Below are positions 60,452 through 61,621 of a stretch of 64,000 bases of DNA, piece after piece (position 1 is the first letter of the stretch; each line of letters opens with the position of its first letter). Location: assembly GCA_018968815.1 (NCBI GenBank), contig JAGWZL010000002.1:20834-84833 (forward strand), read 5' to 3'. Origin of the DNA: Verrucomicrobiota bacterium (GTDB taxonomy: Bacteria > Chlamydiota > Chlamydiia > Chlamydiales > SM23-39). The notes beneath the pieces were generated by a model. That model did no database searches, was not told the DNA's origin, and worked only from the letters and a program-made list of their open reading frames with translations. Position numbers and translations under genes: made by a program.

Positions 60452-61621
60452 TTAAGTTTGTGGTCGGAGTTCTTCGAGAAGAGCAACATCGTCCTCGTCA
60501 GCTCGCAGGCTCTCTTCTTTAAGGCGCTTTTGATTAAATTCCGAATAGCGCTCAAGGGAGAGTTTCTCTGCTACCTGGGCAGATACTTTACCTGCGTGAT
60601 TTAAGAGATCTTTTTCGTTAAAGCTAAGGAAGGTATCCAACTTTTCCCCCCATTCCCTCATCGTGATCGTCTTTCGCCGTTTTGCTTGTAACTCCGCATA
60701 ATCCAAATACATGACGACAATTTGATTGAGCTCTTCCAGTTCCGTTTGAGTGAGGTAATTTTTGGCAATCGCCACGTCTTGTTGACGCACGCGGCTTCCT
60801 TCCCAGCTTGTCAGCCCCATATTAGGCAGTTTGGGATCCGATCGTTCTACAATCAATTCGGCCGCTGTCTTAGAGACTGTTAACGGATTCGGATTTCGTC
60901 GATTTTGGGGATTATTTTGACCGATTTTCGATTGAAAAGTTGGGGGCAATATACTGAATGTCGATATGGCCCCCAACTTTTCAATCGAAAATCGGTTCAA
61001 AAGAACCCCAAAATCGACTGAAACCGAATCCGTTAACAGTCTCTTATGCGTTGTAGCCCAGAGCATTTTATTCTGAACTTTTTTGAAGAATAGCTGAGCT
61101 TGGTTGCTTTTAGCATCGTAATCGACGGCTGTTGCATAAATATCTCGCACTTTCTGATAGAAGCGCTTTTCGGAGGCTCGGATCTCTCGGATTCGAGCCA
61201 ACCACTCTTCAAAGTAATCATTGCCCCCAGGCTGCTTCAAGCGCTCGTCATCCATTACAAAGCCTTTAACGAGGTATTCTTGGAGGTGAGTTGTTGCCCA
61301 TCTCCGAAATTGCATTCCGCGAGGAGAGCGAACGCGGTACCCAATTGCGAGGATTGCGCTAAGACTGTAAAATTTGAGACTCCGCTGAATCGTTCTTTTC
61401 CCTTCAGATTGAACTTGTAAGGATTCCTTACAAGTTGCGGCTTCATCCAGCTCCTTGTCAGCATAAATAGCTCGTAGATGTGTAGTTATGTTTTGAGGAG
61501 TTGTCTGGAAGAGCTCGGCGATTTCAGCTTGGGTTAGCCAAACAGTGCCGTCTTGGGTTCTGAGTTGAATGGCAGCTGTCCCATCTTCTGTGGTGTATAG
61601 AACGATTTCTCCGTTTGCCAT
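60452..61621 (-). CDS. rhuM: RhuM family virulence-associated protein, interrupted in frame by a 171-bp MITE
   Basis: …WLTQAEIAELFQTT…NITTHL…RFYQKVRDIYATA…KTAAELIVERSDPKLPNMGLTSW… matches RhuM. 57-58 extra residues sit between WATTHK and TAAEL. Confidence 0.8.
   Translation of the reverse strand: MANGEIVLYTTEDGTAAIQLRTQDGTVWLTQAEIAELFQTTPQNITTHLRAIYADKELDEAATCKESLQVQSEGKRTIQRSLKFYSLSAILAIGYRVRSPRGMQFRRWATTHLQEYLVKGFVMDDERLKQPGGNDYFEEWLARIREIRASEKRFYQKVRDIYATAVDYDAKSNQAQLFFKKVQNKMLWATTHKRLLTDSVSVDFGVLLNRFSIEKLGAISTFSILPPTFQSKIGQNNPQNRRNPNPLTVSKTAAELIVERSDPKLPNMGLTSWEGSRVRQQDVAIAKNYLTQTELEELNQIVVMYLDYAELQAKRRKTITMREWGEKLDTFLSFNEKDLLNHAGKVSAQVAEKLSLERYSEFNQKRLKEESLRADEDDVALLEELRPQT
60873..61043. 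mobile_element. 171-bp palindromic MITE flanked by a TTA target duplication
   Basis: Arms gagactgttaacggattcgg… and …ccgaatccgttaacagtctc pair along almost the whole length around a ~21-nt centre. TTA lies at 60870-60872 and at 61044-61046. Confidence 0.8.

Follow-up and report, generated by a model that had tools for sequence, protein, structure and literature searches.

An in-frame insertion of a palindromic MITE in the rhuM gene of an environmental Chlamydiota genome

Insertion event and empty site in rhuM

Analysis of a 64-kb stretch of an environmental Chlamydiota genome (contig JAGWZL010000002.1 of assembly GCA_018968815.1, positions 20,834 to 84,833; hereafter the window) revealed that the open reading frame (ORF) of its rhuM gene harbors a 171-bp near-perfect palindrome, which was identified as a miniature inverted-repeat transposable element (MITE). 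The element lies between His193 and Lys194 of the ancestral RhuM protein, the reading frame stays open across it, and the segment was confirmed as a classical insertion with a related empty site and a 3-bp target-site duplication (TSD). The full explanation, which we hold to be quite probable, is that of a selfish MITE moved by a mobiliser of the IS5/IS1031 type, whose insertion probably impairs RhuM.

At the DNA level, the nearest rhuM genes (L024, L025, and L026; 82-85% nucleotide identity) showed an empty site, ...CA-TAA-GAC..., with a single TAA, whereas the codon-level alignment with these three genes showed TAA, 171 bp, and TAA at the same site in the window, an exact gain of 174 bp or 58 codons. 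At the protein level, the 389-aa product matched both the Pfam RhuM domain (PF13310, E = 8e-105) and the PADLOC family PDC-S05 (E = 2.9e-140) in two stretches broken at residue 193, and outside the insert it was 89% identical to the insert-free homologue P0001. A homology search scored 8000 candidate RhuM proteins, all at E <= 1e-20. The best 120 of these 8000 were 326-383 aa long and none of the 120 was long enough to hold a segment at the insertion position; the length outlier among them (P0086, 383 aa) has its own unrelated internal duplication farther downstream. Alignments with 14, 61, and 65 homologues further showed that the 58 residues RLLTDS...PLTVSK between WATTH and KTAAEL are unique to the window protein and flanked on both sides by invariant columns, the segment being absent from all 65 aligned RhuM homologues.

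These results bear out a first-pass annotation made from the sequence alone, which had read the segment as an insertion rather than a native part of RhuM: the homologues have no such segment, the empty site is intact in the DNA of three relatives, and the protein alignment confirmed the insertion point, with the segment in the window protein only. Its coordinates, TTA repeats, and protein junctions all proved correct when the sequence was read, and removal of the 174 bp restores ...THKTAAEL..., as it had noted, which matches the junction of the homologues. Moreover, another public assembly (GCA_018971665.1) carries the same insertion and differs by a single mismatch over 3305 bp (99.97% identity), which excludes an assembly artefact, and a 204-aa gene call holding the insert is on record from three MAGs (metagenome-assembled genomes). 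The chance that the segment is a native, lineage-specific part of RhuM or an artefact of assembly is therefore negligible, both possibilities being refuted by the insert-free homologues, the precise empty site, and the identical allele in the independent assembly.

Structure of the element

Across the insertion (60870-61046), the sequence reads TTA-GAGACTGTTAACGGATTCGG...CCGAATCCGTTAACAGTCTC-TTA, with the bases gtc before it and tgc after it. The 20-nt terminal inverted repeats (TIRs) are perfect, whereas 0 matches are expected by chance (100 shuffles), and a repeat search delimited inverted arms of 81 nt each (60872-60952 and 60964-61044) with 89% complementarity. The arms are thus reverse-complementary, as had been claimed, and do pair when aligned, but over 81 nt rather than the ~75 nt estimated at first. 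Folding 177 nt as single-stranded DNA gave -83.5 kcal/mol (z = -22.4), a value equalled by none of 200 shuffles. The element is short (< ~500 bp) and without transposase coding capacity, its sole stop-free frame encoding a 57-aa low-complexity peptide. In the orientation of the family model it lies on the + strand of the window, and its reverse complement is carried in the rhuM mRNA. The coordinates of these and related features are given in Table 1.

Table 1. Features of the rhuM insertion and of a related element, in window coordinates
Feature	Position	Strand	Basis
rhuM ORF, 389 aa	60452..61621	-	Bro-N/KilA-N-like N-terminus followed by RhuM domain; matches PF13310 and PDC-S05
Palindromic non-autonomous element (MITE)	60873..61043	.	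Palindrome, copies elsewhere, absence from the empty site of relatives
Left terminal inverted repeat, GAGACTGTTAACGGATTCGG	60873..60892	+	Exact 20-mer on both arms
Right terminal inverted repeat	61024..61043	-	Exact reverse complement of left TIR
Central loop, 11 nt, between the 81-nt arms	60953..60963	.	Repeat search and DNA fold
Target-site duplication, left copy TTA (TAA on coding strand)	60870..60872	.	Single TAA at the empty site in L024, L025, L026
Target-site duplication, right copy TTA	61044..61046	.	Sequence read and empty-site alignment
Related 251-bp element, termini GAGACTGT...CAGTCTC	11402..11652	.	Profile match at 11431-11498, E = 1.2e-7

A mobile family with 3-bp target-site duplications

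The element is supported as a member of a multi-copy MITE family common in environmental Chlamydiota. The exact 20-nt TIR was detected in 23 loci, comprising six genome loci (L001-L006) from three Chlamydiota MAGs and 17 metagenome contigs (L007-L023), and BLAST searches together with an nhmmer profile yielded about 30 family sites, the flanks of which differ at every site. Full-length copies of 170-171 bp, with 72-84% identity, were found in L006, L008, L010, L013, L020, and L023; some other copies are cut by contig ends, as is typical of repeats, and some sites are solo ends. In addition, internally deleted derivatives that keep both termini were present in L004 (107 bp), L005 (34 bp), L021 (30 bp), L003 (62 bp), L015 (96 bp), and L001 (154 bp), suggesting that the long palindromes of this family decay through central deletions. 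Most of the copies outside the window are intergenic.

Among the 15 insertions with both ends, 12 are flanked by perfect 3-bp direct repeats (TTA in six, TAA in five, and AAA in one), and the deletion derivatives of 30-154 bp also keep the 3-bp duplication. Furthermore, TAA, TCA, and TGA duplications were deduced from the junctions of element-encoded peptides in other proteins. Short length, TIRs, a 3-bp TSD, no room for a transposase, and multiple copies with varied flanks in several Chlamydiota MAGs and metagenomes together sustain the MITE identity proposed at first sight.

Within the 64-kb window, the source genome has one 171-bp copy and one 251-bp relative, and no further TIR match was found there at up to 3 mismatches; a collection of plasmids likewise gave no match. 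The 251-bp relative is flanked by TAA at 11399-11401 and 11653-11655, the former being the stop codon of the ORF at 10379-11401. Its left part fits the family profile and its right part is a different sequence, and two repeat families may have been joined in it as a chimera. As separate observations, the right half of this element has a 17-bp unit repeated three times in tandem and shares a related segment with 22201-22262, and a second palindromic repeat family is represented at 22190-22385 (54-nt arms, 76% complementarity, 88 nt apart), to which a 62-nt copy at 11587-11648 is related with 84% identity.

Hairpin maintenance in the family

The hairpin is maintained by compensatory changes in the family. 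In the family alignment, the inner stems vary between subfamilies yet stay complementary, with compensatory double changes in 21 of the 52 consensus pairs and 97.6% of the cells paired; none of 500 shuffles matched the observed values, and slid controls yielded just 2-6 such pairs. All copies share an asymmetric bulge, in which ATTA faces TTC, and the element therefore has a polarity. Simple fold-back copying thus does not appear to be what regenerates the hairpin. In the sense rhuM mRNA, the element was predicted to form a hairpin of -122.9 kcal/mol (z = -19). No Rfam family was matched above its gathering score, and the only matches, all sub-threshold, were to plant and animal microRNA-precursor hairpins (e.g., 78.9 bits where the gathering score is 230), which are generic for long hairpins. 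Promoter-like and terminator-like sites around the element occurred at chance level only.

Likely mobiliser of the element

The IS1031 group of the insertion sequence (IS) family IS5 is characterized by an exclusive 3-bp direct repeat and a 5'-TNA-3' target, and the inverted repeat of one IS, ISLrh, is GAACCTGTCTAG (PMC12016507). The same exclusive 3-bp direct repeat was found in the element family, and its TNA preference is evident in that 11 of the 12 perfect TSDs are TTA or TAA, the remaining one being AAA (L010). As such, the link between a 3-bp TNA duplication and part of the IS5 family, which the first-pass annotation had raised with some doubt, is correct for the IS1031 group (PMC12016507) and fits the TTA and TAA duplications as well as the deduced TCA and TGA. 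In addition, GAGACTGTTAAC of the element resembles the ISLrh inverted repeat, the likeness of the ends being weak (GAGACTGT here versus GAACCTGT in ISLrh). Judging from the sequence, the element was most likely mobilised by a transposase of the IS5-family IS1031 group provided in trans. The non-autonomous MITE transposed into the TAA spanning the codons of His193 and Lys194 and duplicated it; a DDE transposase of this group would have acted in trans and left its signature, a T-N-A duplication of 3 bp and GAG ends.

Several observations weigh against this assignment. Imperfect duplications occur in three of the 15 insertions, and the AAA duplication of L010 is an exception to TNA. The sequence searches returned about 30 family sites, but neither the window nor the 250 kb of locus sequence yielded an autonomous partner, which the first-pass annotation had proposed to look for; because no autonomous transposase was found in this space, the IS5/IS1031 assignment draws on just two signatures, the TSD and the sequence of the ends. 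No 8-bp termini 400-3000 bp apart with matching flanks were detected in the same space, and beside the solo TIRs in L021, L012, and L009 there is no transposase, the genes there being housekeeping genes only.

Two other modes of transposition were considered. The TTA and TAA flanks can also be read as TA plus one base, in which case the true duplication would be the 2-bp TA of the IS630/Tc1-mariner type, the extra terminal base would belong to the element, and L020 (TAA...TTA) would be a perfect TA duplication. Relative to the conserved polarity of the element, however, the extra base would then stand at the left end of some copies but the right end of others, the AAA/AAA of L010 contains no TA, and 12 of the 15 insertions have perfect 3-bp repeats; this reading is very unlikely and was rejected as less parsimonious, given the inconsistent side of the extra base and the AAA in L010. 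Less probable still is mobilisation of the hairpin as single-stranded DNA by an HUH/Y1 enzyme, as for PATE of the IS200/IS605 type or REP/RAYT-like elements, although compensatory changes preserve a hairpin that spans the full element and includes a conserved bulge, and a neighbouring ORF (58912-59634) has a sub-threshold match to Y1_Tnp (E = 0.007). That match lies under the Pfam cut-off, the TIRs are perfect over 20 bp, and HUH-type systems make no target duplication, so that the true 3-bp duplication seen against the empty site excludes them. Mobilisation by an IS1031-group transposase in trans remains the preferred reading.

Why the reading frame stays open

Since 171 + 3 = 174 bp, or 58 codons, any full-length insertion preserves the downstream frame, and in rhuM this was automatic. 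The open ORF with a 389-aa product and a 58-residue insertion, as described in the first-pass annotation, reflects this multiple of three together with a used frame that has no stop. Only one of the six frames of the window copy is stop-free, the one used, and the flipped orientation at the rhuM site contains one stop; the orientation and phase used are stop-free by chance, so that an intact 389-aa ORF is what gene finders see.

Dinucleotide-preserving palindromic shuffles gave ~0.6 open frames of six per copy, corresponding to a ~10% chance for a given frame. Among the real family copies, 12 of 42 frames (29%) are stop-free versus 4.6 expected, a ~2.6-fold enrichment, and all six 171-bp copies keep the frame RLLTD...NPLTVS free of stops. 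This enrichment could hint at selection for ORF compatibility, a point against the preferred explanation; the copies share ancestry, however, and are therefore not independent observations. The open ORF of the rhuM allele is itself no evidence of selection on the allele.

The recurrence of in-frame insertion bears on the same question. An exhaustive protein search uncovered 29 cluster representatives (62-376 aa) carrying the insert peptide, while the null result of a word-indexed search with the 57-aa peptide was discarded, as that search had missed an exact-match control (phmmer E = 1e-27). The ten longest of the peptide-bearing proteins have no Pfam domain, and several of them look like gene calls extended from the start codon through an intergenic element. 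One further case, P0158 (L029), is the product of a 252-aa ORF whose middle holds a 171-bp copy with TAA/TAA flanks and with the frame and orientation of the rhuM insert; without the insert, no homologues of this protein were found. Only the window copy, out of 12 tested, lies in a long ORF with recognisable homologues, and the copy in L010 lies in a 171-aa low-complexity open frame.

On this evidence, it is unlikely that the family is an ORF-compatible selfish element like the Rickettsia palindromic elements, under selection to be without stops in one frame and thereby able to persist repeatedly within genes and provide them with new peptide segments, and that the rhuM insert could have been exapted. 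The excess of stop-free frames, the frame shared by all six 171-bp copies, the 29 cluster representatives, and the L029 case speak for such a reading, while the single copy in a long ORF with homologues, the low-complexity frame in L010, the peptide-bearing proteins that lack Pfam domains or resemble extended gene calls, the insert-free P0158 without homologues, and the shared ancestry behind the enrichment speak against it. Equally unlikely is its stronger form, in which the family would be the chlamydial counterpart of the Rickettsia palindromic elements and the rhuM allele a functional defence protein with a new loop; if true, this would be a case of convergence, a second obligate intracellular phylum having selfish DNA within its coding genes.

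Consequence for the RhuM protein

The insert lies inside the most conserved block of RhuM, with the invariant residues K181, V182, N184, K185, M186, W188, and A189 before it and T252 and R260 after it. AlphaFold2 modelled the 389-aa protein with a mean predicted local distance difference test score (pLDDT) of 50, the insert having pLDDT 21-30 and no secondary structure, and modelled the insert-free P0001 with a mean pLDDT of 56.6, placing a helix at 173-191, a turn at 192-194, and a helix at 195-202. The 58 extra residues are of low complexity and predicted to be disordered, and the insertion point may tentatively be placed in a 3-residue turn between two helices, a placement kept tentative because both models are of low confidence (mean pLDDT 50 and 57). 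Structure prediction, which had been proposed to see whether the insert forms a surface loop, thus put a predicted disordered insert in a turn, in models of low confidence both with and without the insert. No relative of RhuM was found in the PDB by sequence.

The insertion would most likely harm the RhuM protein or its expression rather than add a function. Two observations point the other way with respect to harm: the private changes of the window lineage (15 nonsynonymous to 23 synonymous) are similar to those of insert-free relatives, and the rhuM sequence on either side of the insert is free of stops and frameshifts and retains every invariant residue. Overall, rhuM is under strong purifying selection (omega 0.06-0.11). 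The pattern of changes is compatible with either a recent or a tolerated insertion.

A tolerated insertion, in which the insert would be a flexible surface excursion from the inter-helix turn of a 389-aa RhuM still expressed and functional, is possible but rather doubtful. It would accord with the intact ORF and the presence of all invariant residues, with the lack of a nonsynonymous excess on the window lineage, with the modelled turn and disorder, and with the occurrence of the same allele in three MAG assemblies. Yet no block of the domain is more conserved than the one holding the site, the models are of low confidence, and the mRNA hairpin of -123 kcal/mol would be likely to hinder translation or attract RNase III; moreover, if the insertion is recent, decay would not yet be visible and the intact ORF says little. 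Impairment appears about twice as likely as tolerance, and exaptation unlikely.

Genomic context and annotation of the locus

RhuM has been proposed as a toxin domain associated with restriction-modification loci (Anantharaman et al., PMC3710099). In PADLOC, RhuM matches PDC-S05, a candidate defence family, and the DinD-like protein next to it matches PDC-S13. The rhuM gene lies in an accessory array (57318-63120) that starts at a tRNA-Tyr gene (57318-57399) and includes the DinD-like/PDC-S13 gene, a DUF3892-like ORF, DUF4431, rhuM, a Gp49/HigB-like and helix-turn-helix (HTH) pair, and an HNH protein. The cassettes are separated by repeats of 215-275 bp (57385-57600, 58581-58855, and 61648-61922, with a partial one at 62987-63118), each of which contains 17-mers like the tRNA-Tyr 3' end and two terminator-like hairpins. 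The array looks like the product of serial integration at the tRNA; no integrase was found within the window. As accessory DNA, it is a place where an insertion is cheap, and the event may be seen as the landing of a selfish element in a candidate defence gene that is dispensable and belongs to this tRNA-Tyr-linked array.

In the same array, the Gp49/HigB-like toxin gene is split into overlapping frames at 62000-62206 and 62133-62357, the latter covering Pfam Gp49 positions 23-90, and is probably a frameshifted pseudogene beside the HTH antitoxin gene (62345-62641). The sole difference from GCA_018971665.1 is located at 62207.

In public annotation, RhuM is represented by a 204-aa fragment starting from Met186 (60452-61066, minus strand; MBU6382884.1, MBU6446381.1, and MDE3048131.1), and an exact look-up of the full 389-aa protein found nothing on record. 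The in-frame rhuM allele is thus hidden in protein databases, where only this C-terminal fragment is annotated.

The source MAGs are labelled Verrucomicrobia or Verrucomicrobiota at NCBI, a label that is probably wrong. Their type III secretion system protein SctV falls in a 90%-identity cluster with proteins of Chlamydiales and Parachlamydiales MAGs, and the best RhuM matches are from Rhabdochlamydiaceae. Elsewhere in the window, tandem repeats occur inside ORFs at 33790-33951 (a 9-bp unit repeated ~18 times, CCGGTCCGC-like, encoding collagen-like Gly-X-Y on the coding strand), 14854-15123 (a 54-bp unit, ~5 times), and 4581-4704 (a 62-bp unit, twice).

Comparison with known systems

Literature searches turned up no description of a chlamydial MITE family, and the present family is apparently new, undescribed and unnamed until now, but of a well-known kind. 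It provides a MITE insertion in environmental Chlamydiota that is well documented through its empty site, TSD, family membership, and structural covariation, as well as a natural test case for the insertion tolerance of the RhuM/PDC-S05 candidate defence protein. Moreover, the hairpin kept by compensatory changes and the excess of stop-free frames deserve a genome-wide census.

With the MITEs of the IS1031 group of the IS5 family, the family shares the 3-bp duplication, the T-N-A target, ends of the GAG/GA..CTGT kind, small size, and the lack of a transposase ORF; it differs from them in one AAA duplication and in its architecture, a structured palindrome along its entire length instead of a pair of TIRs enclosing unrelated filler. 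Eukaryotic Tourist MITEs of the PIF-Harbinger superfamily, which is related to IS5, also make a 3-bp TTA/TAA duplication, but nothing here hints at a eukaryotic origin, all copies being on Chlamydiota contigs. Unlike PATE of the IS200/IS605 type or REP/RAYT elements, which have subterminal hairpins and no TSD, the chlamydial elements have a 3-bp TSD and 20-bp TIRs. Correia elements duplicate TA. Together with ERIC/IRU and YPAL, these long palindromic repeats of enterobacteria and Neisseria resemble the chlamydial family as imperfect palindromes of 100-170 bp with conserved stems and long RNA hairpins that are occasionally intragenic (PMC10969869), although their hosts and sequences are different and effects on mRNA processing have been documented for them.

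A close parallel in behaviour is offered by the Rickettsia palindromic elements, which are likewise palindromes of ~100-170 bp that sit in frame in a gene of an obligate-intracellular-type lineage and add a peptide to its product. These elements are not known to have a defined TSD, whereas in the present family, with its chlamydial host, both the 20-bp TIRs and the 3-bp TSD are clear. Rickettsia palindromic elements are very often intragenic, with about half of the copies in three of ten families, and both they and intragenic ERIC-type repeats make in-frame fusions (PMC10969869). In contrast, predominant in-frame residence in ORFs was not observed in the chlamydial family (1 of 12 copies), which has one clear intragenic case among ~15 characterised insertions. 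The rhuM insertion leaves the current understanding of MITEs unchanged, and is a clear-cut case, though an ordinary one, of something already known in Rickettsia and other bacteria.

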